From the NCBI GenBank assembly GCA_031291825.1, contig JARLIG010000008.1, positions 5,674 to 69,673 on the forward strand: a DNA stretch of 64,000 bases, given 5' to 3'. Position numbers and translations under genes: made by a program. Under the pieces are notes generated by a model, which worked only from the letters and a program-made list of their open reading frames with translations, was not told the origin of the DNA and ran no database searches. Positions 748-61,515 of this stretch are shown here, piece by piece. Source of the stretch: Minisyncoccota bacterium (GTDB lineage Bacteria > Patescibacteriota > Minisyncoccia > Phycocordibacterales > UBA9973). Positions within the stretch are counted from its first letter, which is position 1. Each line of letters starts with the position of its first letter.

Positions 748-847
748 TTTTTTAAAGATAATAATAATAACTCTACACATAATACTACTTTGCTTAATTT
801 TAAGTAAGTAAAAATATACATAAACTGTGGATAACTCCACAGACAAT

Positions 848-893
848 CCCAGACGTTGGACGTCTGGAAGAATACAGACGTCCAACGTCTGGG
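848..893. repeat. Palindromic repeat element: two inverted CCAGACGT-arm hairpin units, intergenic
   Basis: CCCAGACGTTGGACGTCTGG followed 9 nt later by GACGTCCAACGTCTGGG. The same family occurs at 34177-34224, 44772-44819, 54452-54499 and 61520-61537. Confidence 0.8.
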
Positions 894-2669: not shown

Positions 2670-2745
2670 GCCGTTGTAGCTCAGTTGGTAGAGCACGTCA
2701 TTGGTAATGACGAGGTCATCGGTTCAATCCCGATCAACGGCTCCA
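2670..2745 (+). tRNA. tRNA-Thr (anticodon GGU)
   Basis: Cloverleaf by eye: acceptor GCCGTTG/CAACGGC, D-arm GCTC-AGTTGGTA-GAGC, anticodon arm CGTCA-TTGGTAA-TGACG, T-arm ATCGG-TTCAATC-CCGAT, and an encoded CCA. Confidence 0.85.
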
Positions 2746-2750
2746 TCTTT

Positions 2751-2809
2751 GCCGACGTAGCTCAGCTTGCCCCGCCTTGGCGGGGTGAAGTAGAGCATGA
2801 GAATTAGAA
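2751..2809 (+). pseudogene. tRNA-like 5'-half fragment (acceptor plus D-arm) with an inserted GC hairpin; not a complete tRNA
   Basis: GCCGACGTAGCTCAG resembles the 5' end of the upstream tRNA-Thr. It is followed by the hairpin CCCCGC-CTTG-GCGGGG and then GAAGTAGAGCA. No anticodon arm or T-arm can be built. Confidence 0.3.
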
Positions 2810-2883
2810 GCCGATATAGTTCAGTGGCAGAACACTACTTTCGTAAAGTAGGAACATGGGTTCGATTCCCATTCTCGGCTCCA
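2810..2883 (+). tRNA. tRNA-Thr (anticodon CGU)
   Basis: Acceptor GCCGATA/TCTCGGC with one mismatch. D-arm GTTC-AGTGGCAG-GAAC, anticodon arm CTACT-TTCGTAA-AGTAG, T-arm ATGGG-TTCGATT-CCCAT, and an encoded CCA. Confidence 0.8.
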
Positions 2884-2893
2884 AGAAAAAATT

Positions 2894-3784
2894 ATGGCAG
2901 AAGAAAATAATTCAACAATAGATGAACAAATAAAAAAGCTGGAGGAAGAAATGGTTAGTCCAGATTTTTGGAGTGACAAAATAAGAGCGCAAAATGTTTT
3001 AAGGGAACTGGCGGAATTGAAAGAAAAAAAAGAAGGCGTGAATAAATACGATAAAGGTAACGCCATCGTCACCATTATTTCCGGTGCGGGCGGAGACGAC
3101 GCCGAAGATTTTTCCAGTATGTTGCTTGCCATGTATATGAAATATGCCACGAAGAGAGGTTGGGGAATTTCTTTTGTGAGTGAACACAAGAACGACCAAG
3201 GCGGATATCGTAATGTTTCTTTTGAAGTCGAAGGGAAAAATGCTTATGGCACCTTAAAAAACGAAGGCGGAGTGCATCGTCTCGTACGCGTTTCACCTTT
3301 CAATGCAAAAAAATTACGGCATACTTCTTTTTCTTTAGTGGAAGTCTTGCCGAAGTTTTCCAAAATGGAAGAGCGCGACGTTGTATTGTCACCGGACGAT
3401 TTAAAAATAGAATTTGCGCGTTCCGGTGGTCCCGGCGGACAAAATGTAAACAAAAGAGAGACAGCTGTTCGCATCGTTCACATTCCGACAAACATTGCCG
3501 TTAGTGTTCGTACGGAACGTTCACAAGAACAAAACAAAGAACAAGCGCTCGCGATTCTTCGCGCAAAAATTTTCAAAAAAGCGGAAGCAGAAAAGAAATC
3601 GGTCGAAGAAAGTATGAAGCTGACTAAAGATACAGAGATTGAATGGGGCAATCAGATACGTTCTTATGTTTTGCATCCATACAAAATGGTCAAAGACCAC
3701 CGCACCGGCGCGGAGACATCAAACGTAGATGAAGTTTTGGATGGCAACTTAGATATTTTCATTGAGGCTGAGAAAAATTTGTGA
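2894..3784 (+). CDS. prfB: Peptide chain release factor 2
   Basis: Contains the SPF tripeptide (RVSPFNAKKLRHTSF) and the GGQ motif (SGGPGGQNVNKRETAVRIVHIPT). At 296 aa the N-terminus is short. There is no upstream frameshift segment, because a tRNA sits immediately 5'. Confidence 0.9.
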   Translation: MAEENNSTIDEQIKKLEEEMVSPDFWSDKIRAQNVLRELAELKEKKEGVNKYDKGNAIVTIISGAGGDDAEDFSSMLLAMYMKYATKRGWGISFVSEHKNDQGGYRNVSFEVEGKNAYGTLKNEGGVHRLVRVSPFNAKKLRHTSFSLVEVLPKFSKMEERDVVLSPDDLKIEFARSGGPGGQNVNKRETAVRIVHIPTNIAVSVRTERSQEQNKEQALAILRAKIFKKAEAEKKSVEESMKLTKDTEIEWGNQIRSYVLHPYKMVKDHRTGAETSNVDEVLDGNLDIFIEAEKNL

Positions 3785-8368: not shown

Positions 8369-8380
8369 AATTTGCATAAA

Positions 8381-8410
8381 AAAACTCCACTGGTTAGTGG
8401 AGTTTTTTTA
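8381..8410. terminator. Bidirectional rho-independent terminator
   Basis: Hairpin ACTCCACTGGTTAGTGGAGT followed by TTTTTTT. It lies between convergent genes. Confidence 0.7.
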
Positions 8411-8427
8411 TGCACAAGTTACTAATC

Positions 8428-10341
8428 TTATTGATTTAAAGCTGCTCGGGTTAATGGTCCGACAACTCCATCACCGCTTAAGTTGTGAGCTAGTTGGAAT
8501 TTAATTAGAGCTGCTTTGGTGTTGGCACCAAATACTCCATCAGTCAATAAACTGTAATTTAAAGATGCATTTAATAATGTTTGTAGTTCTGTAACAGCTG
8601 TGCCATTACTGCCACTTACGAGCAACGCAGTACCTAGGTTGTAAGTCGGTGCAACTCCAGCTATGGGTAGTTCTGGCGTGGTGTTATTATAACAAGTTTG
8701 ACCTGTGACTGTGCTAAATCCAACAGTCCCAAAACAGCCAACAATTATGTTGGTAGTATTACCAAAACATGATTGTCCAGTAGTCGTACTGAAGCCAACT
8801 GCTCTGTTGTCACAACCGAGAATCACCACCGGAAGTGTATTTGTTATTGTATTAACACCAGTATTTGGTAAGGTTGGAGTAGTTGTTGGTGTAGAAACTA
8901 CAGTTGTTGGATTCGTGCTTGAGCCACCATACAATTGTCCTCCGCCACCTCCCTGAGGAGAAACTGTCGCTGGAGGCGTTGAGGCTACTGTTACCGTAGC
9001 TGCCGCTCCAGCTGTAAAACCTGCAGAGAAGGTTGCTTGAACGGGTAATATTGTATAAGTATTTCCTAGAACGGTAGTACCGCTTACTGTGACTGTTGCG
9101 ACTGTGTTTCCTGAAGACAAAACAACGTTTGAAATAGTTCCCAAGTCAGTTACATTCGTTCCACCAAGTGTCCAATTACTATTCACTATGCCAGCTGTAG
9201 GGTCAAAAGTTCCTGTAGTTAATGTGTAAGTAATTACAGAAGTGCCTTGTGTGGTAGTCGCTGTGCCAATAGATAAAACTGGACTAACTACTGATGGATC
9301 AACAACAGTATTACCAATTAATGAAACGTCTGTTTGTCCTAAAGCTCGTCCTTGTAAGGTTGCACCATTTTGCATAGCAATAGTTGAAGACCCTGGACCA
9401 GCCAGAATGTTTCCTTCAAAAGTAGATGTGGTTTGTAGAGTAGATGTTCCAGCTACCGCCCAGAAAATATTCGCAGGTACAGCCCCGCCACTTAAAATAA
9501 CACTTTTCGCAGAACTGATATCAAGATTTCCGGGTATTTGAAATATCCAAACAGCACTCGAGCTTCCTGAAAGAGTAAGGTTGGTTGCAATATTTACGTC
9601 TCCAGAACCATCAAAAGTATAAACACCCGGAGCAAGTGTTAAACCGCCCAAGTTACAGGTGCCGCTGACACAGGCTCCTGCATCAAGCACGGTGGTGGCT
9701 GGAACGAGAGCGTTGTTGTATGCAGTAGTTAGGTCACTAGAAGCAGTTTGTTCTTTAGTTGGAGTTGGAACATTGTAATCGTACGCATATACATTTCCAG
9801 AAACTAAAGATGAAGTAGTGTAGGTTGTTGGGGGAACAGATAAAGCAAAACCAGTAATAGCAGTACTTGTTACTCCAGGACCCGTTCCAATATCTCCAGT
9901 GATGGCACTCGTACCAGTATTAGAAATTCCAGTATTAGAAAAAACGGCAAAATTAGTTAGACTTCCCAAGTTTACCGCCGTTGGTGCTACCACATAAGTG
10001 AATCCTCCAGTGGAAGTGATTGTCCCGGTATCAGTATTTGTCACCACAACGTTCTTCGCGCCGACCGTGCCGACAGGAGTAAGCGCTGTAATTTGCGTAG
10101 TGCTTACTACTACAACACTAGTCGCTGCAGTACCACCGACGGTAACAGTTGCGCCGGATGCAAACTGTGTTCCAGTAATGGTTATTGAGGTTCCACCGTT
10201 TACAATACCAAAAGCGGGAGCAATGCTGCCGATAGTGGGAGAGGAGGCAGCGAAAACCATATTAGGCACAACTGAAATAATAAACGCAAAAACTAGCACA
10301 AAAAGACCCATTCCTATCAAACTTTTATTAATATGTTTCAT
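8428..10341 (-). CDS. Secreted surface protein: IPT/TIG-like domain, DUF3494 ice-binding-like beta-helix domain, Cys-motif repeats, and a C-terminal peptidoglycan-binding domain
   Basis: Signal peptide, then an Ig-like segment (PTIGSIAPAFGIVNGGTSITITGTQF). DUF3494 hallmarks are NFAVFSNTGISNTGTSAITGDIGTGPGVTSTAITGF and ANIFWAVAGTSTLQTTSTFEGNILAGPGSSTIAMQNGATLQGRALGQTDVSLIGNTVV. An SPQGGGGGQLY motif and two GFSTxTGQxC repeats follow. The PG_binding_1-like C-terminus is LQTLLNASLNYSLLTDGVFGANTKAALIKFQLAHNLSGDGVVGPLTRAAL. Confidence 0.8.
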   Translation of the reverse strand: MKHINKSLIGMGLFVLVFAFIISVVPNMVFAASSPTIGSIAPAFGIVNGGTSITITGTQFASGATVTVGGTAATSVVVVSTTQITALTPVGTVGAKNVVVTNTDTGTITSTGGFTYVVAPTAVNLGSLTNFAVFSNTGISNTGTSAITGDIGTGPGVTSTAITGFALSVPPTTYTTSSLVSGNVYAYDYNVPTPTKEQTASSDLTTAYNNALVPATTVLDAGACVSGTCNLGGLTLAPGVYTFDGSGDVNIATNLTLSGSSSAVWIFQIPGNLDISSAKSVILSGGAVPANIFWAVAGTSTLQTTSTFEGNILAGPGSSTIAMQNGATLQGRALGQTDVSLIGNTVVDPSVVSPVLSIGTATTTQGTSVITYTLTTGTFDPTAGIVNSNWTLGGTNVTDLGTISNVVLSSGNTVATVTVSGTTVLGNTYTILPVQATFSAGFTAGAAATVTVASTPPATVSPQGGGGGQLYGGSSTNPTTVVSTPTTTPTLPNTGVNTITNTLPVVILGCDNRAVGFSTTTGQSCFGNTTNIIVGCFGTVGFSTVTGQTCYNNTTPELPIAGVAPTYNLGTALLVSGSNGTAVTELQTLLNASLNYSLLTDGVFGANTKAALIKFQLAHNLSGDGVVGPLTRAALNQ

Positions 10342-12068: not shown

Positions 12069-12138
12069 ATGGTACTCTAACTTTCTAAACTTAACACATT
12101 TTAACTTGAATTAGAAGTGATATATTGAAAATATGAAA

Positions 12139-21459: not shown

Positions 21460-22323
21460 ATGATTAAAAAGATAACAAGGGGCCATGTTTTCCCAAAAAT
21501 AAACAATTATTATAACTTATTATTAGCTGTAATCATGGTTTTAGTTACTGGAAGTATCTTTATTGGCACTGTTAAAGTCTTTGCGGACAGTACATCTCCA
21601 GTTGGCGATGTACAATTGTCTTCGGCTATCAATATAGTTTCTCCAAATGGAGGTGAGCAATGGGGAGCCGGAAGCACTTATTCGATTACTTGGATTGATA
21701 CAAGTCCTATATCAATGATTTGCAATGTCGGTGTCTCTCCTTGCGGTCTTGTCCAGAAATACGATATTTCTTACACTCCAGTCGGAGCGACAACCCAAAA
21801 TATTACTACAGCTGTTTCTGGAACTTCATATAATTGGACAATTCCAAGCAGTCAAGCAATTGGTTCTTATTCCATAAAGGTTTGTAAAACTGGTACCACC
21901 ACCTGCTCTACTAGTAACAGTTTTAGTATTGTCGCTGCTGGAAATGGGACTGTTTCAAGTTCTCCCCAAGGAGGCGGTGGTGGACAACTTTACTATCCTG
22001 TGACTGTTGCTCCAACTCCAACAACACCTACGACACCAGTAACCCCAACAACACCTCCAACTCCAGTTCCACAGGTTCTTGCCGCAGAAAAGTTTCACTT
22101 TACACTTTATCTTATGATGGGTATTCCATATAAAATGCCCGCACAGGTTAATGAAGTGACAGAACTTCAAAAATTCTTAAATGTTGCTGGATATTATCCT
22201 GGACCAATCGATGGAAAATTTAGTGCAACCTTGAAGGCAGCAGTCGTTGAATTCCAACTTGCTAATAATTTAGTCGGGGATGGAATTATCGGGCCATTAA
22301 CTCGCGCAGCGCTAAATAAATAA
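21460..22323 (+). CDS. Secreted protein with a C-terminal peptidoglycan-binding domain
   Basis: Signal anchor and an SPQGGGGGQLY motif, a PT-rich linker, and the C-terminal LQKFLNVAGYYPGPIDGKFSATLKAAVVEFQLANNLVGDGIIGPLTRAAL (PG_binding_1-like). Confidence 0.65.
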   Translation: MIKKITRGHVFPKINNYYNLLLAVIMVLVTGSIFIGTVKVFADSTSPVGDVQLSSAINIVSPNGGEQWGAGSTYSITWIDTSPISMICNVGVSPCGLVQKYDISYTPVGATTQNITTAVSGTSYNWTIPSSQAIGSYSIKVCKTGTTTCSTSNSFSIVAAGNGTVSSSPQGGGGGQLYYPVTVAPTPTTPTTPVTPTTPPTPVPQVLAAEKFHFTLYLMMGIPYKMPAQVNEVTELQKFLNVAGYYPGPIDGKFSATLKAAVVEFQLANNLVGDGIIGPLTRAALNK

Positions 22324-25233: not shown

Positions 25234-25797
25234 ATGATGGAAAAATTAAAATTTGCGTTATTTTCAATTGTTGTTTTAGCCCTAGTTGGAATTTTGGGAT
25301 ATTGGGCGGTTGCGACTATCAAATCGGGAAGTGAATTTGCCGCGACCCAAAAAATCGGAGAATTGCAACAACAAAACGAAGATTTAACCAAACAAATTGC
25401 TGACCTGACACAGCAACTTAACAATTCAGAGGCTCAGGTAGTAAGTCTGACACCAGCGCTGACGCAAACCGTCACTCCATCTACAACGCCCAATACATCG
25501 ACAAAAACTTCTACTAAGACAACTACTTATAAAAATCAAACACTCATAAATCAACTACAGCAACTTATTACGGATAACATCAACATGAAATTAAATTCGA
25601 CTGGCACTAGAGTCGGCACGGTGCAAACTTTCTTAAATCTTTACAACAATACTTCTAATAAGGTTGATAATGACTATGGAGCCAGTACCGTAAAAGCAAT
25701 TTCTGCTTTTCAAAAAGCTCAAGGTTTGACGGCCGATGGACAAGCTGGTGCTAGTACTTTTAATAAAATGATTAGTTGGCTCCAAAAACAGGGTTAG
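25234..25797 (+). CDS. Membrane-anchored coiled-coil protein with a C-terminal peptidoglycan-binding-like domain
   Basis: TM, then a coiled-coil (QQQNEDLTKQIADLTQQLNNSEAQ), then VQTFLNLYNN...YGASTVKAISAFQKAQGLTADGQAGASTFNKM. Confidence 0.55.
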   Translation: MMEKLKFALFSIVVLALVGILGYWAVATIKSGSEFAATQKIGELQQQNEDLTKQIADLTQQLNNSEAQVVSLTPALTQTVTPSTTPNTSTKTSTKTTTYKNQTLINQLQQLITDNINMKLNSTGTRVGTVQTFLNLYNNTSNKVDNDYGASTVKAISAFQKAQGLTADGQAGASTFNKMISWLQKQG

Positions 25798-33712: not shown

Positions 33713-34150
33713 ATGAAAATCGAATGGAACAAAGTAACTTGGTATTCTAAATTAATAGCCGTAATTTTATTTGTCGTGGTTTTTTATTTTGGTTTTTCTT
33801 TAGGTAAAGAAGCAGGGGAAATAGTGCCGACTATTCCGGTGCAAATACCTGTAGTAAAACCTATCAACACTGTCTCTTATTCTTGCGATGCAGGTAAGAC
33901 TATCGTCGCAGCTTTTTATCAAGGAGTAGCTAAACCAGTCGCAGCTGGAGATATGCCTATTCCGACTGGAAGTGTGGTTTTGAAGCTAAGCGATGGACGT
34001 TCCATGACCTTACCACAAACAATTTCCGCAGACGGAGGAAGGTATGCAAACAAAGACGAATCTTTTGTTTTTTGGAGTAAGGGCAATGGAGCTTTTGTAA
34101 CCGAAAGTGACCCAAATATCCAAACTTACAGCAATTGTGTTACAAAATAA
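33713..34150 (+). CDS. MliC-family (membrane-bound lysozyme inhibitor of C-type lysozyme)-like protein
   Basis: TM anchor, then YSCDAGKTIVAAFYQG...LSDGRSMTLPQTISADGGRYANKDESFVFWSKGNGAFVTESD...NCV, which matches the MliC pattern with two Cys. Confidence 0.6.
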   Translation: MKIEWNKVTWYSKLIAVILFVVVFYFGFSLGKEAGEIVPTIPVQIPVVKPINTVSYSCDAGKTIVAAFYQGVAKPVAAGDMPIPTGSVVLKLSDGRSMTLPQTISADGGRYANKDESFVFWSKGNGAFVTESDPNIQTYSNCVTK

Positions 34151-34176
34151 TTAATATTATATAGGTGTGGATAAAC

Positions 34177-34224
34177 CTCCAGACGTTGGACGTCTGTAAG
34201 CTTACAGACGTCCAACGTCTGGAG
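34177..34224. repeat. 48-bp perfect palindrome of the CCAGACGT repeat family (intergenic)
   Basis: CTCCAGACGTTGGACGTCTGTAAGCTTACAGACGTCCAACGTCTGGAG is its own reverse complement. Confidence 0.85.
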
Positions 34225-34324: not shown

Positions 34325-34663
34325 ATGGAAAATATGGATAAAAAAGAATGTGGATGCGCAGAAGGTAAGTGTGCTTGTGGTTCTATGGGTCATATGCATG
34401 GTTGTCATGGTGGAATGTATCATCTTCTAAAAGTAGTTTTGAAGATTTTCATCCTAATCATTATCTTTTGGTGTGGATTCCAGCTTGGTCAAGAATCTGG
34501 TTTAATCAAGGCAGAATATGGACGCGCTATGATGATGAGTCAAAGAGGAGGTGCTTCTAATTTTGGAATGATGGGTGGTAATAGTGGTTGGAACAATAAT
34601 ACTTCTGGTGTTATGATTCCAGCAACCAACGCTACTCCTGTAGTGCCAACACCAGCTAAATAA
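34325..34663 (+). CDS. Small Cys/His-rich membrane protein with a Gly/Met-rich tail
   Basis: N-terminus CGCAEGKCACGSMGHMHGCHGGMYH, one TM, then GMMGGNSGWNNN. Confidence 0.45.
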   Translation: MENMDKKECGCAEGKCACGSMGHMHGCHGGMYHLLKVVLKIFILIIIFWCGFQLGQESGLIKAEYGRAMMMSQRGGASNFGMMGGNSGWNNNTSGVMIPATNATPVVPTPAK

Positions 34664-34684
34664 TTTTCAAATTAATATTTGAAT

Positions 34685-34730
34685 AAGATAAAACAAAAAC
34701 CCTCCAATTGGAGGGTTTTTGTTTTATCTT
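34685..34730. terminator. Bidirectional terminator (46-bp perfect palindrome)
   Basis: AAGATAAAACAAAAACCCTCCAATTGGAGGGTTTTTGTTTTATCTT between convergent genes. Confidence 0.75.
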
Positions 34731-34739
34731 ATTAATTAA

Positions 34740-35579: not shown

Positions 35580-35749
35580 ATATTAATTAGATTAATTATT
35601 AATTAGTAAACTTAATGAAGTAAACAATATATAACTTATAATAAACAGAATACGACATTTTCTGTGTGCTAATATATACGTGATATGTGAGGTAAATGGT
35701 GCATAACTTTGATGCACCATTTTTAATTATTTTGGCGTATAATATATAT

Positions 35750-37696
35750 ATGATGAAAATATTTAAAAAATCTAATTTGTTTCTATTTTCTTTTTTAGTA
35801 ATTATGTTTTCTATGTTTTCTATGTTTATTTCCACAGCCCACGCTACCGTGACTCCGACTCTTTCAGTGGCAGCTACTGGAGATGGAAATTCAGTTCAGG
35901 TTAATGTTATGGGAGACCCAAATGCCAGTGTTTTTATGGTTTATGTAAAAAGTGGTGCTGGACAACAGATACCTTTAATTGGAACTACCAGTGCCAGTGG
36001 ATTTTTGACTACCACCATCAGTAGCTCCTCTTATGGAATTGTTTCTGGCGCTCCAGTTTATGTCATATTGGATAATATCAATGGTCCGCAATCTGCCAAT
36101 GTGACTTGGCCAGCGGTGACTTCCTTGCTCTCTAGCGGTAACATGATTTCTCTCAGCCAAACCGGTTTGGTTTTGACAGTTGGACAATCATCAACAATTA
36201 CTGCTAGCAATTTAAATGGTAGTTCTTTATATTTATCCAGTAATTCTAATCCACTCATCGCCAATTTTAGTGTCAGTGGCTCTCAGATAACTGTTTTAGC
36301 TAATGGTTATGGCTCTACTACTGGAACGGTATGTTTAGTTAACAATACTACAAACTGTGCAAGCATCTATGTCATGGTTCAAAATAGTAGTGCAGTGCCA
36401 CTTAGTTTTAGTCAAAACAGTATTTCCTTGTCATCTGGACAATCTGTAGCTGTTCAGATTTCTGGTGGTTCTGGATCTTATTCTGTGCTTAGTAATTCTA
36501 GTCAAGGTGGCGCTTTAGTAACTACCAGTATTTCTGGACAAATTATTACTTTGACCACGGCTAGCACGAGTGGTTCTTCATCAATCACTGTTTGTTCTAC
36601 AAATATGAATTCTTGTGGAATTGTAAATGTTTCAATCGGTACGACTAATTCCACAACTACGGCAATTTCTTTTAGTCAAACAAATCCGACTGTAACTATC
36701 GGACAGAGCTCTAATATTAGTATCTATGGTCCCACCAGTAGTCTCTTTTATGTTTCTTCAAATTCAAATCCTAGTATTGTCCAAGCCAATTTATCTGGTA
36801 GTGTTCTGACCTTGCTTGGTATTGCTAATGGAACTTCCACAATAAGTGTTTGTTCTTCCTCAAGTAATTGTGGAACCTTAACTGTAACCGTCAGTCCTAA
36901 TTACAGTACAAACGGTGGAAATATTACACTAAGCCAAGACACTATCTCTCTTTCTGTTGGTCAGAATTCAAATATTACAGTTTCTGGTGGAACCATGCCC
37001 TATACCACTTTGATTACACCCAATAATATTTTTCAAGCGACGCTCAACAGTAACATATTGACGATTTATGGTCTTGCAGCAGGTTCGTCTTCGATGAGTG
37101 TGTGCTCAAACGGAACATGTGCTTCTGTTACTGTCACAGTTCTAGGAACAGGTTCAACTAGTTCTTATTTACCGGTGGGCTGTTACTCCACTGTCGGCTA
37201 TAGTCAAACGACAGGAATGTCTTGCTCGACAGTTGTTTCTGCCAACACCAGTACTATTTATCCAGCGGGTTGTTACTCTACTGTTGGTTATAGTCAAACT
37301 AGTGGCTTACCTTGTAGCTCTACATCTACTGCCACAACACCGACGGTGCCAGTTGATTGTACCGGAGCAGTCTATAGCATCTCCACTGGTCAAGCTTGTC
37401 CTGTCAGCACTATAATAACTACCCCAGTTGTCGCAACACCCACGACTGTTGCTACACCTACACCCGCATCAACAAATACCGCTTTTATTTTTACCACTCA
37501 ACTGAAGCTAGGTTCCACTGGTACTGCAGTAATTCAATTACAGAAAAAATTAAAAACATTAGGATTTTACAAAGGGAAAATTGATGGGGGATATGGAGCA
37601 GCAACAGAATTAGCGGTTAAGGCACTTCAAAAAGCTCATAAACTTTCTCAAGTAGGTGTCGTTGGTCCACAGACAAGAGCAATTTTAAATAAATAA
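35750..37696 (+). CDS. Large secreted surface protein: about five Big_2-like Ig repeats, Cys-motif repeats, and a C-terminal peptidoglycan-binding domain
   Basis: The track ORF starts at 35696. The signal peptide MMKIFKKSNLFLFSFLVIMFSMFSMFISTAHA begins at 35750. Repeats follow the pattern LS.SQ..ISLS.GQS..V.ISGG. The motifs GCYSTVGYSQTTGMSCS, GCYSTVGYSQTSGLPCS and CTGAVYSISTGQACP follow, then the C-terminal LKLGSTGTAVIQLQKKLKTLGFYKGKIDGGYGAATELAVKALQKAHKLSQVGVVGPQTRAIL. Confidence 0.75.
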   Translation: MMKIFKKSNLFLFSFLVIMFSMFSMFISTAHATVTPTLSVAATGDGNSVQVNVMGDPNASVFMVYVKSGAGQQIPLIGTTSASGFLTTTISSSSYGIVSGAPVYVILDNINGPQSANVTWPAVTSLLSSGNMISLSQTGLVLTVGQSSTITASNLNGSSLYLSSNSNPLIANFSVSGSQITVLANGYGSTTGTVCLVNNTTNCASIYVMVQNSSAVPLSFSQNSISLSSGQSVAVQISGGSGSYSVLSNSSQGGALVTTSISGQIITLTTASTSGSSSITVCSTNMNSCGIVNVSIGTTNSTTTAISFSQTNPTVTIGQSSNISIYGPTSSLFYVSSNSNPSIVQANLSGSVLTLLGIANGTSTISVCSSSSNCGTLTVTVSPNYSTNGGNITLSQDTISLSVGQNSNITVSGGTMPYTTLITPNNIFQATLNSNILTIYGLAAGSSSMSVCSNGTCASVTVTVLGTGSTSSYLPVGCYSTVGYSQTTGMSCSTVVSANTSTIYPAGCYSTVGYSQTSGLPCSSTSTATTPTVPVDCTGAVYSISTGQACPVSTIITTPVVATPTTVATPTPASTNTAFIFTTQLKLGSTGTAVIQLQKKLKTLGFYKGKIDGGYGAATELAVKALQKAHKLSQVGVVGPQTRAILNK

Positions 37697-44644: not shown

Positions 44645-46234
44645 ATGCAAGAAATTAACACCCAAATATTAATTATTGATTTAGGTTCTCAATACACGGA
44701 AATAATCAGACGCAGTTTGCGTTATTTGGGATTTCGCTCAACCATAATTTCTCCGGAGGAACTTTTAGAGGCTCCAGACGTTGGACGTCTGGAAGCTTCC
44801 AGACGTCCAACGTCTGGAGCGGGAGCCAACTTGAAGAGCATTATTTTATCTGGTGGTAGCGCCAGTGTCTATGATGGAGATGCTCCTAAAATTCCAAAAG
44901 AAATATTAGATTTAGGTATTCCAATTTTGGGCATTTGTTATGGAATGCAATGGTTGGCTTATGTCAACAATCCTGACTCTGTGCATAAAGTTAAAGAGGG
45001 TAAATCATATGGTCCTGTTGAAGTGACTTTAAGCAAAAGCAAACTTTTTGAAAATTTAAGCGAAAAGAATAATGGAAAGATAAATGCATGGTCCAGCCAT
45101 GGAGATTCAGTAAAAAAAGTTCCAGCTGACTTTAGTATTATTGCTACTTCCAAAGACGGTGTAGTGATTGAAGGTATGGAGTGTCAGGCGAAAAATATTT
45201 ATGCTGTGCAGTTTCATCCAGAAGTGGAGCAAACCGAAGATGAAAATATTATTTTAAATAATTTTGCTTCAAAAATTTGTAATTGCATTTTAGATTATGA
45301 CAAAAAAAATATCATAGAAGAAATTAGAACAAATACCAAAAAAATATTAGGTAATGGCACGGCAATTATTGGAGTCTCCGGCGGAGTTGATTCTACGACC
45401 TTGGCTGCTATTTTGGCGCCAGCACTAGGTGAGCAATTGAAAGCATTTGTGATTGATACTGGCGGAATGCGCAAAGATGAAGTTGAGAGGGTAAGAGAAA
45501 TCGCTAAAAAAGCAGGTGTAAACCTGGAAGTAATTGATAGGTATAAAAATAAATTTGTGGAAAGTGTGGGGAAGAGCATTGATGCTGAAGAAAAACGTGC
45601 TCACTTTCGAGCAGTTTACGGGGAAGTATTTCAAGAAGTGGCGAAATCCTATGGTGCAACCCATATGATTCAAGGAACTTTGGCGACTGATTTGATTGAA
45701 TCTGGTGGTGCCGGAAAGTCTGCTTTAATTAAGACACATCACAATGTTGACCTTAAACTTGGATTGAAGGAAATAATACCATTGTCTGATTTTTTCAAAT
45801 TTGAAGTGCGAGAACTAGCACGTGAATTTGGATTGGAAGAATTATTAACTAATCGTCAGCCTTTCCCAGGCCCAGGTTTGTATTTGCGAATTGTTGGAGT
45901 AAAAGTCACAGAAGAATTATTGGAGATTGTTCGAGAGGCAGATTATGAAGTGACACAAATTCTAAAAAAACACAATGTTTATAAGGATATTTCTCAAACT
46001 ATTGTGGCGCTCCTCGGAGTAAATACTGTGGGAGTAAAAGGCGATGGCAGAGTCTATGGATATTCTTTGGTGGTGCGTACCGTGGAGACAATTGATTTTA
46101 TGACAGTCAAGGGATTTTACTTAGAGAAAGTTATCTGTGAAGAAATAACTAGCGCGTTGGTCAAGCATCCAAAAATTGTTCGAGTGTTTTTTGATTGGAC
46201 GACCAAACCTCCAGCAACGACTGAATTTGAATAA
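44645..46234 (+). CDS. guaA: GMP synthase (glutamine-hydrolysing), carrying a 16-aa in-frame palindromic-repeat insertion
   Basis: The track ORF starts at 44609, but a terminator overlaps it, so the ATG at 44645 (MQEINTQILIIDLGSQYTE) is preferred. GATase signature GICYGMQ, ATP-PPase P-loop GVSGGVDSTT, and C-terminal KPPATTEFE are present. Confidence 0.95.
   Translation: MQEINTQILIIDLGSQYTEIIRRSLRYLGFRSTIISPEELLEAPDVGRLEASRRPTSGAGANLKSIILSGGSASVYDGDAPKIPKEILDLGIPILGICYGMQWLAYVNNPDSVHKVKEGKSYGPVEVTLSKSKLFENLSEKNNGKINAWSSHGDSVKKVPADFSIIATSKDGVVIEGMECQAKNIYAVQFHPEVEQTEDENIILNNFASKICNCILDYDKKNIIEEIRTNTKKILGNGTAIIGVSGGVDSTTLAAILAPALGEQLKAFVIDTGGMRKDEVERVREIAKKAGVNLEVIDRYKNKFVESVGKSIDAEEKRAHFRAVYGEVFQEVAKSYGATHMIQGTLATDLIESGGAGKSALIKTHHNVDLKLGLKEIIPLSDFFKFEVRELAREFGLEELLTNRQPFPGPGLYLRIVGVKVTEELLEIVREADYEVTQILKKHNVYKDISQTIVALLGVNTVGVKGDGRVYGYSLVVRTVETIDFMTVKGFYLEKVICEEITSALVKHPKIVRVFFDWTTKPPATTEFE
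44772..44819. repeat. 48-bp perfect palindrome (CCAGACGT family) inserted in-frame inside guaA
   Basis: CTCCAGACGTTGGACGTCTGGAAGCTTCCAGACGTCCAACGTCTGGAG translates as (A)PDVGRLEASRRPTSG. Removing exactly these 48 bp gives a contiguous canonical GATase loop. Confidence 0.85.
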
Positions 46235-47228: not shown

Positions 47229-48896
47229 TTAAAAAATTCTCCTCAAGAGACTCATGAACCAGTTTTTGTGTATAGGTTCTATTTGAGTTATGGTAACCGG
47301 AAACACAGTTGCATTTATTGCACTGGCTATGTTTTGTACTGCTGGATTTTCTGACTTTACAATTGTTGCAACTTCCTTTTTTGGAATATTTTTAATAACT
47401 GATACAGTGTTTGTATTTTCTCCATTAATGATAGGTGGAGTCGTTTCACCTACAGATGTAATATTCATCGCAACATTTTGTTTTTCAAAAGTTTGCATTG
47501 CTTGGTTCCAAGTTTTTCCAGATAACGCAGAATTGACATAAGCAGTTTCCCAAATTTTAGTTTGAAGGTCTGCGTCTTTCACTCCACCATCAATATCTTG
47601 AATAGTGGCTAAGTAATCAAGTGGAGTTTTTGGAGCAGTGCCGTCTGTGGGTTTGGTTAACCAATCTGCTGGTTTTTCATTTTGCGCCAAAATTCCTTCT
47701 ATGGCCCAAGCGGTTGAAGAAGCATTGTCATTCCAACTGCCATCCGCCCTCTCACTTTGTTCTAAGAAATTTTCTGCATTTGCCAGAGCGTCTTTTACTT
47801 GTCCGACTTGATTGAAAGCAGATAGAGCCTCCATCGCCGCGCCAGTCATATCTACACTATCGCTATCCCAAGAGCCATCACTACCTTGTTTGCTTAATAT
47901 AAAATTTATATCACTACTTATAATTGGGTCACTCTGCGTGTATCCAGCATTTTGTAAAACGATTAGAGCAAAAATATCATCATTGTCTTCGTTTGGGTCG
48001 CCGAATTGTTTTCCGTCAAAACTCGTAACTATTTTTCCAATATAATTTTCTCCATTCGTGTCGTAAGGATTGAGTCCAAGAGCCATCAACGCCATCGCGC
48101 GTCTTTCATAGTCGGTTAAGATTGGGTTTTCCATTGTCTCTCCATCAAGATATTTTGTTAACTTTATTGTTTGTGATTCATAATTTCCTGAAGCAAGAGC
48201 TATAGCTGCCCAGTCAGTGTATAAATCTCCGTCAAAAGAACCGTCAGTTCCTTGTTGGGCAGTTAGAAAATCAAAAGCTTTTCCCGTATCAAAAGTCGGG
48301 GTAGTTGTTACTATTGGCGTAGGTATAGATGCGATTGTTGCTACTGTGGAAGGCGCTGCTGGTGTGGTTGTAGATGTATTTGAAGGAGTATTGTCGTTCA
48401 ATTGTCCGCCTCCAGAACCAACTGGAGCGGGTGGAATTAACGAATTAATATTAATTGTAACTTGGTCTCCTAAACTATTATTATTAAAATCATCAAGCTG
48501 GAACATGATCGTGTCTCCAGCAGAGATTGGTAACTCAGTTGCTCCAAAATTAGCTGAAGTGCCGTTTTGATAAATTGCCCAATATTGGCTACTGGGGTCA
48601 GCAGCCACATTATTAATTGCAGTAATAAAAAGGCCATACTGAGGATCATTTGAAAATTGTGGATTAGATATAGCACCATTATTTTCTGCTGCCTCTAGTG
48701 CACAAATGGCAAGATATGAGTTTGTAAAACCCGCTTGTGGATAATTGTGAACTACTCCGTTCGTGTCGGTGACAGAGCAACTAGATGGTACATCTACTGA
48801 GGTTGTAATATTTAACCCTGCTGCATGAACAGTATTAAAAAAACCAAAAATAACGAAACTTGCTAAAACTATAAATATACTTATTTTATTTTTCAT
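47229..48896 (-). CDS. Secreted protein with an N-terminal DUF4430 beta-domain and a prenyltransferase/squalene-cyclase-like alpha/alpha-toroid repeat domain (transcobalamin-like domain set)
   Basis: Signal peptide. DUF4430-like GLFITAINNVAADPSSQYWAIYQNGTSANFGATELPISAGDTIMFQL. An SGGGQL motif. Repeated Q..DGS(W/F) segments (GTDGSFDGDLYTDWAAIAL, QGSDGSWDSDSVDMTGAAMEAL, RADGSWNDNASSTAWAIEGIL) are typical of alpha-alpha toroid prenyltransferase/terpene-cyclase repeats. Confidence 0.75.
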   Translation of the reverse strand: MKNKISIFIVLASFVIFGFFNTVHAAGLNITTSVDVPSSCSVTDTNGVVHNYPQAGFTNSYLAICALEAAENNGAISNPQFSNDPQYGLFITAINNVAADPSSQYWAIYQNGTSANFGATELPISAGDTIMFQLDDFNNNSLGDQVTININSLIPPAPVGSGGGQLNDNTPSNTSTTTPAAPSTVATIASIPTPIVTTTPTFDTGKAFDFLTAQQGTDGSFDGDLYTDWAAIALASGNYESQTIKLTKYLDGETMENPILTDYERRAMALMALGLNPYDTNGENYIGKIVTSFDGKQFGDPNEDNDDIFALIVLQNAGYTQSDPIISSDINFILSKQGSDGSWDSDSVDMTGAAMEALSAFNQVGQVKDALANAENFLEQSERADGSWNDNASSTAWAIEGILAQNEKPADWLTKPTDGTAPKTPLDYLATIQDIDGGVKDADLQTKIWETAYVNSALSGKTWNQAMQTFEKQNVAMNITSVGETTPPIINGENTNTVSVIKNIPKKEVATIVKSENPAVQNIASAINATVFPVTITQIEPIHKNWFMSLLRRIF

Positions 48897-48910
48897 GATT
48901 TAAAAACTAA

Positions 48911-49378
48911 TTAATAATCTGACTTCTCATATTTCCAAGAGACGACATCTCCAGGGTTTATCTTATAATTTGAAATACCAATTTGTGCTTCTATACCGTT
49001 CACATAGTAAATCCAAACCAAGCTATTACTATTTTTTATTCCGTTTATTTCATTTATAAATTTACCCATACTCATATAATTTTGTTCGGTGAAATTTATT
49101 TTTCCTTCACTTCGGAGCTGGCTCATAAAATCATAGACACTCATTTTCTGTGTAATGGCATCTTCATAGCTGACTCCGTTTATTTCTAAAACAGTTTCAA
49201 TTGTTTTGGTCTGGCTGACAGGTTTATTTGCTGTGGTATTTAGATTTAAATTTTCTGAAATGGCAGGAAGGTTAGTCGTCTGTTGTTTTGGAGCTCCGTG
49301 TGGAATAAAGAAAAATAATCCTAATAATATTAAAACTATGATGACCACTATAATTATTTTTATTTTTTTATTTTTCAT
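48911..49378 (-). CDS. Membrane-anchored DUF4430 domain protein
   Basis: TM anchor, then VYDFMSQLRSEGKINFT...MGKFINEINGI...LVWIYYVNGIEAQIGISNYKINPGDVVSWKYE matches the DUF4430 consensus (YW.Y.VNG....G.S.Y.L..GD.I.W.Y). Confidence 0.7.
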   Translation of the reverse strand: MKNKKIKIIIVVIIVLILLGLFFFIPHGAPKQQTTNLPAISENLNLNTTANKPVSQTKTIETVLEINGVSYEDAITQKMSVYDFMSQLRSEGKINFTEQNYMSMGKFINEINGIKNSNSLVWIYYVNGIEAQIGISNYKINPGDVVSWKYEKSDY

Positions 49379-49394: not shown

Positions 49395-49590
49395 AAATCC
49401 TGCCAGATAGAATCCAGAGCAGAATTTGGGGTCCTTCAAATAAAGAGATAAATGAAGGCAAAGAGACTTTTGTCCTGCTCGGGAATACATGAAACGATTG
49501 GTATTCGGACTTGTCTTCGACCTAGGTCGAAGCTTACCGTAGCGGCACTGTACTGGAATCAAACCAGTTTCCCCAATAGTTTCTTTTCGT
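49395..49590 (-). ncRNA. Candidate cobalamin riboswitch in the leader of the DUF4430 operon
   Basis: The minus strand reads UAUUGGGGAAACUGGUUUGAUUCCAGUACAGUGCCGCUACGGUAAGC...(hairpin)...GAAGACAAGUCCGAAUACCAAUCG. This matches the B12-element core GGGAA-n3-GGUG-nAAnUCC...CnG-nCCCGCCACUGU and the 3' AAGUCAGGAUACC block. An expression-platform hairpin and U8 tract lie at about 49391-49420. Confidence 0.4.
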
Positions 49591-49632
49591 TTTCAAATGA
49601 ACTCACTCTAGTATATACTTACCCTATATCTT

Positions 49633-51394: not shown

Positions 51395-52558
51395 TTAAAT
51401 ATCAGCCTTGCGAATAGTTGAGGCGAGGTAAACTCCAAAAAGCATCATCAACCCCAAGACGGGGAAGATGAAATTAAATTTCGGTAGAAAAATAAAAACC
51501 ATTAAGGCCACAATCGGTCCAGTAATGTAAGCCAAAGGACTTGTGCTACGGTAAATTCCGACAAATTCTTCATTTTCTGGTTTGATGTGTTTAAAAAAAT
51601 ACGAGTCACTCATGACTTCGACAGTTGCGGCGCCGACTCGAGTCAAGAAAAGCAATGCTGCCCATATCCAAATCTCTGGTTTTTGAATAAAGAACAGAGA
51701 AATGGTTGAAATAGAAATAATAAAAAATCCAACCATCAACATTTTTCTTTCACCGACCTTATCTGAATATCTTCCCATTGAAGACTCAATCAACACAAAA
51801 GGTAAGAGCATTATGGTAAAAATTATAGCAATATCTTTCCAAGTGAAACCTAAATAAGAATATAGATATATAGGTGTATAAATAATCATCCAGCAATAGA
51901 AGAACTGCAGAAGAAAATCTATACTATATGAACGTAAAAGATTTTTATTTTTTATAAAATCCTTAACATAACTTAAGATTTTTAATCTGTCGTATTTTGG
52001 GTCTGGAATATTTTTGAGTCCAAATAAAGATAATAGGAAAAATAATATCATTATAAAAAAAGCAATGATATAAATTGTTTTCAAGGGAAAATTTCCAAAA
52101 ACTGTTCCGGATAATAATTGTGCCACGACCCAAGCAAAATTACTTAAAGCAAGATAGATACCTCTAATTCTTCCAGTTGCTGATTCCTTAGAAAATATCT
52201 TTAATAATTCATCCAACGAAAAGAAAACTACGATATTTAAGGCAAAGCCAAGAACAAAAGAACATACAGCAGAAAAAGCATTAGTAGATAATGCCAACCA
52301 CAGTATCGATAGAGTATTAAGTCCAATTACTAACAATAAAAATCTATGCCCTCCAATTTTTCTAAAAACCCTTGGAGCAAACAAAAGCATCAAGATAGAA
52401 ACGAGTGAACCTAAGGTATAAACTAATCCAACAAATCTCTCACCGATAAACGGTGAGAGAAAACTGGAGTTTATATAAGACATCAACGCTATTGGAATTG
52501 ATGCCAAGAAACCCGCAAAGTATATAATTATTCTGTCACGCTTCATATTTTTAAACAC
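51395..52558 (-). CDS. MFS-type transporter
   Basis: 387 aa and 12 TMs. Confidence 0.65.
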   Translation of the reverse strand: MFKNMKRDRIIIYFAGFLASIPIALMSYINSSFLSPFIGERFVGLVYTLGSLVSILMLLFAPRVFRKIGGHRFLLLVIGLNTLSILWLALSTNAFSAVCSFVLGFALNIVVFFSLDELLKIFSKESATGRIRGIYLALSNFAWVVAQLLSGTVFGNFPLKTIYIIAFFIMILFFLLSLFGLKNIPDPKYDRLKILSYVKDFIKNKNLLRSYSIDFLLQFFYCWMIIYTPIYLYSYLGFTWKDIAIIFTIMLLPFVLIESSMGRYSDKVGERKMLMVGFFIISISTISLFFIQKPEIWIWAALLFLTRVGAATVEVMSDSYFFKHIKPENEEFVGIYRSTSPLAYITGPIVALMVFIFLPKFNFIFPVLGLMMLFGVYLASTIRKADI

Positions 52559-58525: not shown

Positions 58526-59623
58526 ATGAAAAAAATACTATTGTTTTGTGCAATGGTTTTTTCGTTTCTATTTTTACAAACTAATCAGGCGCAAGCTTCG
58601 TATCATTTCTCAAATTATAAAGGCCGGCCACCGATACATGTTTTGGGTGGAGCGACAAAAACTCCAAGCGGAATCACTCCCTCGCAAATAAAAAATTTCT
58701 ATAATCTTCCGACTTCTGGCGGACACGGCACGATTGTAATCATCGGTGCTTATGATGATTCGGCAATTGAAAAAGATTTAAATATTTTTAGTACACAATT
58801 TAATTTACCAAGTTGCACGACTGCTAATGGATGTTTTACTAAACATAAAATGTCTGCGACGGTGAAAAGCAATAGTGGTTGGGCGATGGAAACTAGTCTG
58901 GATATTGAATGGGCACATGCGATTGCTCCAAATGCAAAAATTATGCTAGTGGAAGCTGTTACTCCTTCCGGCGCGAATTTATTAAAGGCGGTGGATTATG
59001 CGGCCAGTGTAAAAGATGCAAGTGCAATTTCTATGAGTTGGGGTGGAGCGGAATTTCCCGAAGAAACAAATCTTGATTCACATTTCCAAAGTGTTTCTGG
59101 CGCGCCGTTTTTCGCTTCGTCGGGAGACAACGGCGCGGGCGCATCTTGGCCGGCAGCTTCGCCCGATGTTATCGGTGTCGGTGGGACGACAATAGCTGTA
59201 AAAAGTGATGGAACATTTTCCAAAGAAACAGCTTGGACGGGAAGTGGAGGTGGGGTCAGTGCTTATGAAAAAGAACCAACTTTTCAAAATGGATATTCAA
59301 TACCGAAGGCGGGAGGTATGCGCGCGGTTCCTGATGTTGCTTATGATGCGAATCCCACTTCTGGTTTTCCGATTGAGCGAGGTGGAAAATGGTATGTCGT
59401 GGGTGGAACATCAGCTGGCGCGCCGCAATGGGCGGCCATTGCGGCGCTAGGAAGTGGAATAAATTTAAATAATCTTTACGGAGATAAAAATGGAGATAAC
59501 AACGGAAAATATTTTCGTGATATTACAGCCGGTTCCAACGGCGATTGCGGATATTATTGTTCAGCACGAAAACATTATGACTATATTACGGGTTTAGGCA
59601 GTCCATTGACAGACAGCTTCTAG
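58526..59623 (+). CDS. S53 (sedolisin)-like or S8-like serine peptidase
   Basis: Pro-domain-like ITPSQIKNFYNLP. GHGTIVIIGAYDDSAIEKDLNIFSTQFNLPSCTTANGCF. Catalytic Ser context GGTSAGAPQWAAIAAL. Confidence 0.75.
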   Translation: MKKILLFCAMVFSFLFLQTNQAQASYHFSNYKGRPPIHVLGGATKTPSGITPSQIKNFYNLPTSGGHGTIVIIGAYDDSAIEKDLNIFSTQFNLPSCTTANGCFTKHKMSATVKSNSGWAMETSLDIEWAHAIAPNAKIMLVEAVTPSGANLLKAVDYAASVKDASAISMSWGGAEFPEETNLDSHFQSVSGAPFFASSGDNGAGASWPAASPDVIGVGGTTIAVKSDGTFSKETAWTGSGGGVSAYEKEPTFQNGYSIPKAGGMRAVPDVAYDANPTSGFPIERGGKWYVVGGTSAGAPQWAAIAALGSGINLNNLYGDKNGDNNGKYFRDITAGSNGDCGYYCSARKHYDYITGLGSPLTDSF

Positions 59624-61034: not shown

Positions 61035-61073
61035 GAGACGTCGGTATCCTGCGAAGCAGGAGCCCGACGTCTG
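61035..61073. repeat. GACGTC-containing 9-bp-stem palindrome with a nested hairpin, in a divergent intergenic region
   Basis: AGACGTCGG tatCCTGCgaaGCAGGag CCGACGTCT. It is related to the CCAGACGT repeat family. Confidence 0.5.
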
Positions 61074-61092
61074 GGCTGTGCTAAACTAGTGA

Positions 61093-61515
61093 GTGCTTAA
61101 AAATAAAATTTACAATTTTTTTGGCAGGCGATATGTCGTCAGACGCAGAGTGATACGCGTTGCAGGGCCAAAGAAAATTCTCGGCCATCTCACGGCAAAA
61201 GATTTTAAGGAAAATAAAAAGGCATCGTATGCGCTCATAACCGAGAGGATTGCATATTTCAATCAATCGGGAGAATTTCCGGTAGGGAAGATATTTATAA
61301 AAAATCAAAAGACCAGATGGGGCAGCTGCTCAGGAAAAAGAAATTTGAGTTTCAATTACAAACTCCTTTTTCTGCCGGAAAATCTAAGAGACTATATTAT
61401 CATTCACGAACTCTGCCATCTAAAGGAAATGAATCATTCCAAAAATTTCTGGTCCCTCGTCGCCCTCCAAGTGCCAAATTACAAATCCCTCCGCAGACAA
61501 ATCAAGCCTTACTAG
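61093..61515 (+). CDS. YgjP-like (DUF45) putative metal-dependent hydrolase / metallopeptidase
   Basis: YIIIHELCHLKEMNHSKNFWSLV matches the family motif HELcHl.e.nHs..FW. Confidence 0.75.
   Translation: MLKNKIYNFFGRRYVVRRRVIRVAGPKKILGHLTAKDFKENKKASYALITERIAYFNQSGEFPVGKIFIKNQKTRWGSCSGKRNLSFNYKLLFLPENLRDYIIIHELCHLKEMNHSKNFWSLVALQVPNYKSLRRQIKPY

Follow-up and report, generated by a model that had tools for sequence, protein, structure and literature searches.

Probable REP sequences, mostly inverted doublets, of a REP-RAYT system in a Patescibacterium

Background

Repetitive extragenic palindromic (REP) sequences, the REP doublets known as REPINs and the REP-associated tyrosine transposases (RAYTs) are well described (PMC3116915, PMC5581495, PMC6006769). 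In the Proteobacterial systems, such as the REP/BIME sequences of E. coli with their transposase TnpAREP (structure 4ER8) and the REPINs of Pseudomonas, short GC-rich chromosomal hairpins, mostly arranged as inverted pairs, are accompanied by a Y1 transposase gene of the HUH type that is flanked by the same hairpins (a REPtron) and keeps its chromosomal position; target-site duplications are absent and intergenic copies lie near the 3' ends of the upstream genes. The dispersed hairpin repeats described here, from a 64-kb stretch of the contig JARLIG010000008.1 (hereafter referred to as the window, at its full length of 64,000 nucleotides), and their counterparts in related genomes are alike in these respects, the chromosomal position as far as the few loci with visible flanks show. 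They are probably the REP sequences, mostly in the form of REPIN-like inverted doublets, of a REP-RAYT system of the Patescibacteria.

The synteny of RAYT genes has been described as resembling that of housekeeping genes (PMC5581495), and most of the described REPs carry a GTAG or a CGTC tag (PMC3733652). In the TnpAREP subclasses 2.4 and 2.8, which are found mainly in Cyanobacteria and Bacteroidetes, REPs are present in frame within the tnpAREP genes, and no Patescibacteria were sampled in that survey of TnpAREP proteins (Quentin et al. 2018, PMC6006769). Intragenic in-frame REPs and the Rickettsia palindromic elements (RPEs) are also documented (Di Nocera et al. 2013, PMC3733652).

REPs, their doublets, RAYTs and in-frame copies are known already, and the present family is set apart by its Patescibacterial host, the lack of a tag at the hairpin foot, the short spacer, a divergent transposase of 220 amino acids (aa) and the proportion of copies in coding sequence. 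Patescibacteria are ultra-small bacteria whose genomes, of about 1 Mb, are regarded as reduced. To our knowledge, work on REP-RAYT systems has been confined almost entirely to Proteobacteria and Cyanobacteria, and in the literature searched no paper was found that names REPs or RAYTs along with the Patescibacteria, the Parcubacteria or the candidate phyla radiation.

The repeat family in the window

Counted over both strands, the window has 16 copies of the octamer CCAGACGT, compared with an expectation of 0.65 +/- 0.70 and a maximum of 3 in dinucleotide-preserving shuffles, and the unit pattern CCAGACGT-NNN-ACGTCTGG, with up to two mismatches allowed, is present as nine intact units against a chance expectation of 0. 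The dispersed hairpin family proposed in a first-pass annotation of this DNA is therefore real, and the coordinates given there for its copies are all correct. The unit (written CCAGACGTYSRACGTCTGG as single-stranded DNA) spans 19 nt and forms a hairpin in which a stem of 8 bp, CCAGACGT/ACGTCTGG, closes a 3-nt loop, and its density in the window, which has a GC content of 38%, is about one per 7 kb. The family comprises nine intact units (849-867, 874-892, 34179-34197, 34204-34222, 44774-44792, 44799-44817, 54454-54472, 54479-54497 and 61520-61538), one decayed unit and one long variant, spread over six loci, as listed below (no strand is assigned to any of these features).

848-893, putative REP doublet 1: units 849-867 (TGG loop) and 874-892 (CCA loop) around the centre GAAGAATACA; imperfect 46-bp palindrome
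34177-34224, putative REP doublet 2: perfect 48-bp palindrome with the centre TAAGCTTA and a TAA stop in one frame; single-strand fold of -26.8 kcal/mol
44772-44819, putative REP doublet 3: perfect 48-bp palindrome with the centre GAAGCTTC; in frame in guaA
54425-54441, decayed third unit CAGATGTTCCACGTCTT in the N-terminal extension of RNase J: encodes SRRGTS and has the same rare loop variant as the neighbouring doublet
54452-54499, putative REP doublet 4: perfect 48-bp palindrome with TCC/GGA loops; in frame in RNase J
61035-61074, long variant: outer stem AGACGTCGG/CCGACGTCT (the REP stem extended by CGG/CCG loop bases) enclosing an inner hairpin of unrelated sequence; -16.2 kcal/mol
61520-61538, single putative REP unit CCAGACGT-CCA-ACGTCTGT; single-strand fold of -6.3 kcal/mol

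Inverted doublets make up four of the six loci. The earlier description of perfect palindromes of 44-48 bp holds for the three 48-bp doublets (34177-34224, 44772-44819 and 54452-54499), in which two inverted units around a centre such as AAGCTT form the palindrome, and fails for 848-893, the sequence of which reads CCCAGACGTTGGACGTCTGG-AAGAATA-CAGACGTCCAACGTCTGGG. Similarly, the TGG/CCA loops reported throughout are not those of the RNase J doublet, which has TCC/GGA. As a single strand a doublet folds into one long hairpin, with predicted energies of about -25 to -28 kcal/mol (-24.8 kcal/mol for doublet 1), compared with about -7.5 kcal/mol for a unit; the z-scores of the folds are -10 to -14. 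Proteobacterial REPINs, in contrast, are about 100 bp long, while the present family has 3-nt loops, a 6-bp spacer and a near-perfect palindrome of 48 bp. The hairpin at 61035-61074, noted earlier as a related GACGTC palindrome, is indeed related through its outer stem, and it is counted here as a family variant because the guaA site of a related contig (L203) has a long form comparable to it; the hairpin of the window lies between divergent genes, and the syntenic site of the Candidatus Nomurabacteria contig L063 is without it. An isolated half-site at 63279 is no more than chance predicts.

The GuaA protein encoded in the window is 100% identical to MDR3519529.1 from a metagenome-assembled genome of a 'Candidatus Pacebacteria/Paceibacterota bacterium', and the region 58.3-61.5 kb is about 85% identical to L063. 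On account of these two similarities the host is considered to be a Patescibacterium. Streptococcal or Firmicute repeats of the BOX or RUP type, or a HindIII/AatII linker, were considered as sources of the repeats and rejected in view of the GuaA match and of orthologous copies in other assemblies. The genes of the window include prfB, ftsEX, pyrG, pentose-phosphate genes, guaA, rnj, secG, transporters and many proteins with peptidoglycan-binding domains, and Pfam scans of about 60 open reading frames (ORFs) revealed no transposase, integrase or phage gene, as in ordinary chromosomal DNA.

Y1 transposases flanked by the same hairpin in related genomes

The hairpin pattern CCAGACGTNNNACGTCTGG was searched in one genome per species, and the statements made here on its distribution cover the matches listed. 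Two non-random groups carry the hairpin, namely the Patescibacteria and the Acidobacteriota. The Patescibacterial matches belong to Nomura-, Yonath- and Paceibacterota, Minisyncoccia and Saccharibacteria, with loops of the CCA, CCG, TGG and CGG types as in the window.

The first-pass annotation had regarded the repeats as REP-like, with a cognate Y1 transposase expected elsewhere, and this is supported by Y1_Tnp genes flanked by the same hairpin in three contigs (L095, L120 and L206). In the Parcubacterial contig L095, the ORF 2723-3385 (220 aa) scores 31.9 bits with the Pfam family Y1_Tnp (PF01797; cutoff 23). It is bracketed by units at 2660 and 3393, and a third unit lies in frame within the gene, the sequence being CCAGACGTCCGAC[A/G]TCTGG. 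The transposases of L120 and L206 are 81% and 66% identical to that of L095, respectively, and have the same hairpin arrangement, and L206 has a GC content of 38%, like the window. The stem CCAGACGT is common to the three, that is, to the L095 gene and its closest relatives. The gene order uvrC-transposase-uvrA is found in L095, L120 and L205, in which both flanks are visible, and uvrC is present on one side in the short contig L206; such an order matches the housekeeping-like synteny of the RAYTs described earlier (PMC5581495).

A total of 3420 homologues of this transposase were identified at E <= 1e-5. Among the top 120 listed, the named taxa are all Patescibacterial with the exception of two labelled 'bacterium' and one KSB1 (P0079), and some carry the annotation 'REP element-mobilizing transposase RayT'. 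Eighty metagenomic loci encoding members of the family were surveyed for hairpins. In 73 of them a perfect hairpin, with a stem of at least 8 bp and a 3-nt loop, is present within about 130 bp of one or both ends of the gene, mostly on both sides; the typical form is (C)ACTTGGNNGT-nnn-ACNNCCAAGT(G), with a stem that varies by lineage. Further, 54 of the 80 genes hold one or two in-frame copies of their own lineage-specific flanking hairpin at two recurrent places in the protein, roughly residues 60-70 and 155-168, for example at 1085-1117 and 1364-1396 in L156 and at 349-375 and 640-666 in L169. The internal and the flanking stems co-vary between lineages, and the internal copies encode peptides of the type xLGxxxSKx.

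The residues H84 and H86 of the HuH motif NPNHYH, as well as Y144 and N148, are invariant in the 24 sequences of the alignment A2, the Asn being at position +4 from the Tyr. An Asn at this position serves as the third metal ligand in E. coli TnpAREP, the corresponding residue in IS608 being Gln (PMC6006769). An AlphaFold2 model of the L095 transposase (pLDDT 81.9, pTM 0.80) has as its best Foldseek match in the PDB the complex of E. coli RAYT with a REP hairpin, 4ER8_A (E = 5.3e-5, TM-score 0.44 by query and 0.56 by target), followed by the TnpA structures of IS608 and ISDra2. As judged from its sequence, the Patescibacterial transposase family is only distantly related to the curated RAYTs, differing from the usual RAYT, with its HVH and WQ motifs, in its length of about 220 aa and its motifs NPNHYH and LFQGKFK. 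It resembles the TnpAREP subclasses 2.4 and 2.8 in having in-frame REPs within the transposase gene and in being longer than the 150-aa core, subclass 2.8 also having HYH; it differs from them in that, in 54 of 80 genes, the internal hairpins occupy two fixed positions and change together with those that flank the gene.

Two side observations concern these loci. The contig Ga0209541_10002790 carries two family members about 6 kb apart (L189 and L190), with the hairpin types ACTTGGGTGT and ACTTGGGGGC, respectively, which suggests two REP-RAYT systems in one genome. In L205, a doublet of another REP type, GGAAGT-CCG-ACTTCC, is present at 12099-12136 inside the large uvrA-like gene that adjoins the transposase gene; uvrA is a recurrent host of intragenic REPs (PMC3733652).

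Gene context of the repeats

At three loci the repeat follows a stop codon at a distance of 4, 26 and 4 nt, respectively, and the flanking genes are co-directional at all three. Doublet 1 lies 4 nt from the stop codon of the minus-strand ORF 898-2592, with a minus-strand gene starting near 745 downstream of it; doublet 2 lies 26 nt past the stop of the ORF 33713-34150 (MliC-like) and about 100 nt upstream of the ORF 34325-34663; and 4 nt separate the single unit at 61520 from the stop of the ORF 61093-61515 (YgjP-like), the gene downstream being that of an Eco57I-like methylase (61617-62621). REPs to which a role at the RNA level is ascribed usually lie in such positions (PMC3733652), and together with the high stability of the hairpins it would agree with host-selected RNA elements (terminators, attenuators or stabilisers of mRNA 3' ends), for which the link to a transposase would be secondary. 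Copy 1 is in addition terminator-like on the strand of its upstream gene. The proposal that these copies could serve as terminators, however, is correct as to the three positions and not as to the structure, since a consensus scan calls nothing at copies 2 and 5, which lack a T-tract, and copy 1 has only the weak tail TTGTCTGTGG. Ordinary terminators with a stem and a T-run, unrelated in sequence, are present at 8373-8414, 34682-34733 and 63763-63792, and an Rfam search at gathering thresholds yielded three tRNAs and one cobalamin riboswitch in the window and no match at the repeats.

An explanation by RNA function must also accommodate the two doublets that are perfect palindromes within essential genes, where termination would be harmful. 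The presence of intragenic as well as intergenic copies had been recognised earlier, and the doublets at 44772 and 54452 are in fact both inside genes and in frame. In guaA (44645-46234, plus strand), doublet 3 is located inside the GATase domain and contributes the 16 residues APDVGRLEASRRPTSG; in the gene of RNase J (52551-54578, minus strand), doublet 4 is located in the N-terminal extension of the protein and encodes SPDVPRLEASRRGTSG. The reading frame through the doublet is identical in the two genes. The 48-mer with the GAAGCTTC centre is free of stops in all six frames, and the intragenic doublets are both stop-free, whereas the intergenic copy 2 has a TAA in one frame. The same stem is moreover found at unrelated genes and around the Y1 transposase in three genomes, unlike what is seen with independently arising terminators. 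RNA elements are therefore considered an unlikely explanation of the family, and the REP-RAYT interpretation is preferred. Open frames of at least 200 codons hold 16 of the 43 hairpins located away from transposase genes at the related loci, and this presence of about one-third of the copies in long open frames, together with the Patescibacterial host, distinguishes the family from the Proteobacterial systems.

In-frame palindromes in housekeeping genes, including dimers, which add 16-30 residues at tolerant sites, are a feature shared with the intragenic REPs and the RPEs; RPE-1 differs in its length of 100-150 bp and is unrelated in sequence. The RPEs were reportedly described by Ogata et al. 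in 2000. We know of no dedicated transposase for either the CGTC-type REPs or the RPEs, while one is evident for the Patescibacterial family.

The Eco57I-like methylase ORF (61617-62621) that comes after the single unit at 61520 is followed by the ORF 62625-63599 with a sub-threshold Tsp45I-like match (22.6 bits against the Pfam cutoff of 25). In L063, the stretch at about 2950-3250 between two repeat clusters resembles the start of a methylase gene, as read from the DNA only. The repeats could, on such sequence resemblance, border a variable restriction-modification island. A link of the methylase or the Tsp45I-like nuclease to copy 5 itself is not evident. Tsp45I cuts GTSAC, which does not occur in the unit.

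DnaA-box 9-mers beside the repeats

Three of the four intergenic repeat loci have a perfect DnaA-box 9-mer (TGTGGATAA/TTATCCACA) next to them, and the whole 64 kb contains only six perfect 9-mers. The features concerned are as follows.

825-842, minus strand: small hairpin CTGTGGAGTTATCCACAG followed by TTTATGTATA, terminator-like on the minus strand, containing the 9-mer TGTGGATAA (826-834) and adjoining doublet 1
34166-34174, plus strand: perfect 9-mer TGTGGATAA, linked to doublet 2 by the junction TGTGGATAAACCT-CCAGACGT
61543-61551, minus strand: perfect 9-mer TTATCCACA, 4 nt beyond the single unit

The three intergenic copies share TGTGGATAA(A)C on the 5' side, and in the window, with the unit oriented so that its loop reads TGG, the box precedes it every time. 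The junction TGTGGATAAACCT is identical at two loci of the window (34166, and 61551 as the reverse complement) and in L063, where a unit with its box like that at 61520 is 92% identical and lies at a different position. Boxes near hairpins are also found at 2899-2935 in L063 and 2707-2740 in L053, and in 594 kb of Patescibacterial sequence including the window the box is enriched beside hairpins (6 of 28 boxes), in either orientation. The idea of TTATCCACA as a general part of the repeat was dropped, since its orientation is not constant and only a minority of cases show it.

These boxes bear on another explanation, according to which the units are binding sites of a host DNA-binding protein or DNA-uptake signals that were spread by uptake bias or selection. 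The presence of the same 19-mer in several Patescibacterial lineages with GC contents of 29-53%, its arrangement as inverted pairs at gene ends and within genes, and the perfect 9-mer beside three intergenic loci would agree with it. Patescibacteria rely on imported DNA and nucleotides, and the uptake sequences of Neisseria also occur as inverted pairs after genes. The density of about one unit per 7 kb, and a far lower one in the relatives, is low for an uptake signal, however, and the stem tracks the neighbouring transposase by lineage, as expected of co-evolution between REPs and RAYTs and not of a conserved receptor. The guaA copy, furthermore, is an insertion of a whole 48-bp block instead of a gathering of point changes. 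This explanation is thus regarded as very unlikely, and the attribution of the units to a REP-RAYT system is retained.

Age and evolution of the copies

Genomes of about 80% DNA identity and 84-86% GuaA identity share the guaA doublet as an orthologous copy; one other genome has a remnant of it, and beyond these it is absent. GuaA homologues that are more than about 17% divergent are without the insert, and the closest four or five have the insert or its remnant at the same position. The copy of L200 reads GCAGACGT-TGG-ACGTCTG / ACAGACGT-CCA-ACGTCTGC, with a centre shorter by 3 bp, and that of L202 reads CCAGGTGT-CGG-ACACCTGG AAGCTT CCAGGTGT-CCG-ACACCTGG, a compensatory change of all four arms. 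In L201 the doublet is decayed and a different REP type, CAACTTGGACAT-ccg-ATGTCCAAGTTG, is present elsewhere in the gene, and the guaA site of L203 holds the long variant plus one canonical unit. The layout of an inverted unit, a unit and a unit in RNase J is common to the window and L204, the loops of all three units being GGA/TCC in the window and ACG/CGT in L204.

Orthology across genomes of about 80% DNA identity indicates that the intragenic loci are old and vertically inherited, which weakens the earlier suggestion of an active or recently active element; only the perfect symmetry of the copies suggests a continuing homogenisation. The density of units in the window is nevertheless high when set against the six further copies in 292 kb around other Patescibacterial transposase genes. 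The units are alike within each genome while the flanking coding DNA differs by about 20%, a pattern that, on sequence comparison, is one of concerted evolution. The pattern is observed and the process behind it may be arm-to-arm conversion or replacement mediated by the transposase.

The comparison across genomes also bears on the remaining explanation, that the repeat is a classical miniature inverted-repeat transposable element (MITE) derived from a DDE-type insertion sequence, or else an artefact of assembly in the form of palindromic chimeras. The elements are indeed short, palindromic, dispersed and non-coding, and the source is a metagenome-assembled genome. Nevertheless, assemblies made independently from other samples (L200, L202, L203 and L204) have the same doublets at matching places in the genes, with the reading frames of guaA and rnj intact, so that an artefact, which the first-pass annotation had named as a refuting finding, is not involved. 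Of its description of the repeats as REP/MITE-like, the MITE part is not supported. No direct repeats that could represent a target-site duplication flank any of the four doublets, the window contains neither a parent insertion sequence nor a DDE transposase, and the length of 19-48 bp is below the usual size of MITEs. No common target consensus is apparent at the borders of the doublets, the left flanks ending in ...AAAC, ...GAGG, ...TTAC and ...CAAT. The lack of a target-site duplication fits a Y1 transposase rather than a classical MITE, and an origin as a MITE or an artefact is hardly credible.

An identical stem in the Acidobacteriota

The second group of matches, from the Acidobacteriota (Pyrinomonadaceae, Blastocatellia and Chloracidobacterium; among the loci L001-L119), is present in massive numbers among the matches listed and represents a GTAG-tagged REP. 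It shares with the window family the identical 8-bp stem CCAGACGT/ACGTCTGG, the 3-nt loop, the inverted pairs and the location beside a Y1 transposase (L110 and L118). It differs in having GGTAG before the hairpin, loops of GCA, GAA, TTC or TGC, and composite elements with further hairpins, in which the paired units are about 105-118 bp apart (about 190 bp with the outer hairpins), as at 2109-2233 in L032. Inverted units 554 bp apart surround the gene of a 148-aa Y1_Tnp protein (75 bits) in L110 (4945-5517), and in L118 (2191-2692) the hairpin is present on one side of the 148-aa Y1 transposase, compared with both sides in L110. The Acidobacterial transposase is IS200-like, with the motif Y-x3-Q-x2-HH. 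Homology of the Acidobacterial and Patescibacterial transposases that share this stem was considered and rejected as BLASTP detects no similarity between them, and the GTAG-tagged REP is, by the features of its sequence, most likely an independent family.

Assessment and proposed mechanism

Several observations weigh against the assignment of the window repeats to a REP-RAYT system. No Y1 transposase was found in the 64-kb window by tblastn and by Pfam scans of about 60 ORFs, and the cognate transposase of the source genome is consequently inferred. The hairpin feet of the window copies have no shared unpaired GTAG or CGTC tag, the flanks varying among the copies (CT/AG, CC/GG and TT/TA). The family thereby differs from the Proteobacterial REPs with their unpaired GTAG, a GTAG being present in the window copies only as an overlap within CTGTAGG at 61535-61541, and also from the CGTC-type REPs, in which CGTC is an unpaired end tag, ACGTC being part of the stem in the window family. 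Two of the six loci (guaA and rnj) are intragenic and in frame, at variance with the extragenic location by which REPs are defined. The L095 protein scores 22.1 bits with the NCBIfam model REP_Tyr_transpos (NF047646), far under the cutoff of 80, and a sequence search of the PDB with the family profile gave no match. Dispersed hairpins near other Patescibacterial RAYT genes are sparse, with six further ones in 292 kb, which for many lineages may mean that the hairpins are chiefly a part of the transposase locus and not a proliferating population. Lastly, the copies for which a comparison between genomes is possible, those of guaA and RNase J, are all old, and no transposition event was observed.

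By analogy with the described members of the REP-RAYT family, the hairpin would fold when the DNA is single-stranded, for example in the lagging-strand template at the replication fork, and would be bound by a dimeric Y1 HUH transposase (RAYT), which would cleave through a tyrosine-DNA intermediate and rejoin the DNA elsewhere without a target-site duplication. The transposase gene of the source genome would be situated outside the window, most likely in the gap between uvrC and uvrA; neither of these two genes is present in the window. Survival within genes would be favoured by the length of 48 bp, equal to 16 codons, by the absence of stops in every frame of the form with the GAAGCTTC centre, and by tolerant host sites; in GuaA the site is a loop-like part of the GATase domain in which homologues vary, and in RNase J it is an N-terminal tail that looks disordered. 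The copies are inherited vertically over long periods and stay symmetrical and lineage-specific, presumably through homogenisation. Stabilisation or attenuation of RNA by the three 3'-end copies would be a possible side effect and not the reason for the family.

A more far-reaching proposal, which we consider doubtful, is that the Patescibacteria possess an ancient REP-RAYT subclass whose targets include coding DNA in addition to spacers, with self-target hairpins kept at two fixed in-frame places in the transposase gene and the copies in essential genes actively rewritten to the current stem of the lineage. The joint change of the four guaA arms in one relative and the sharing of one loop per genome by the RNase J units fit such a rewriting. 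If true, the enzyme would be a domesticated editor of single-stranded DNA that maintains, and perhaps regulates through, hairpins, instead of the agent of a decaying selfish repeat.

The retention of a hairpin repeat family and a dedicated tyrosine transposase in streamlined genomes of about 1 Mb is of significance for genome evolution, and the orthologous intragenic copies make the concerted evolution of REPs and their co-evolution with the transposase directly measurable across genomes. For annotation, the family accounts for recurrent odd short peptide inserts, such as PDVGRLEASRRPTSG in the window and xLGxxxSKx in relatives, that could otherwise be mistaken for functional motifs or assembly errors. 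The perfect 48-bp palindromes are likely to cause trouble in assembly and cloning, and would be handy strain markers.

Other features of the window

The ORF 58526-59623 contains a perfect GC-rich palindrome with a 12-bp stem (59420-59447), which encodes APQWAAIAA in a GTSAGAP motif resembling the active site of serine proteases. It is 100% conserved in L063 despite differing neighbour codons and is unrelated to the repeat family. The cobalamin riboswitch (Rfam, 40 bits) is located at 49479-49621 on the minus strand, upstream of two genes with DUF4430 domains (47229-49378), one of which also has a squalene-hopene-cyclase-like domain. The release-factor ORF at 2810-3784 (PCRF and RF-1 domains) begins directly after a tRNA-Thr gene and matches the PCRF profile from position 95 only, and hence looks N-terminally short or frameshifted; prfB is often frameshifted. 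Predicted surface proteins ending in a PG_binding_1 domain are encoded at 8428-10341, 21460-22323, 25234-25797 and 35696-37696, one of them with TIG and ice-binding-like domains.

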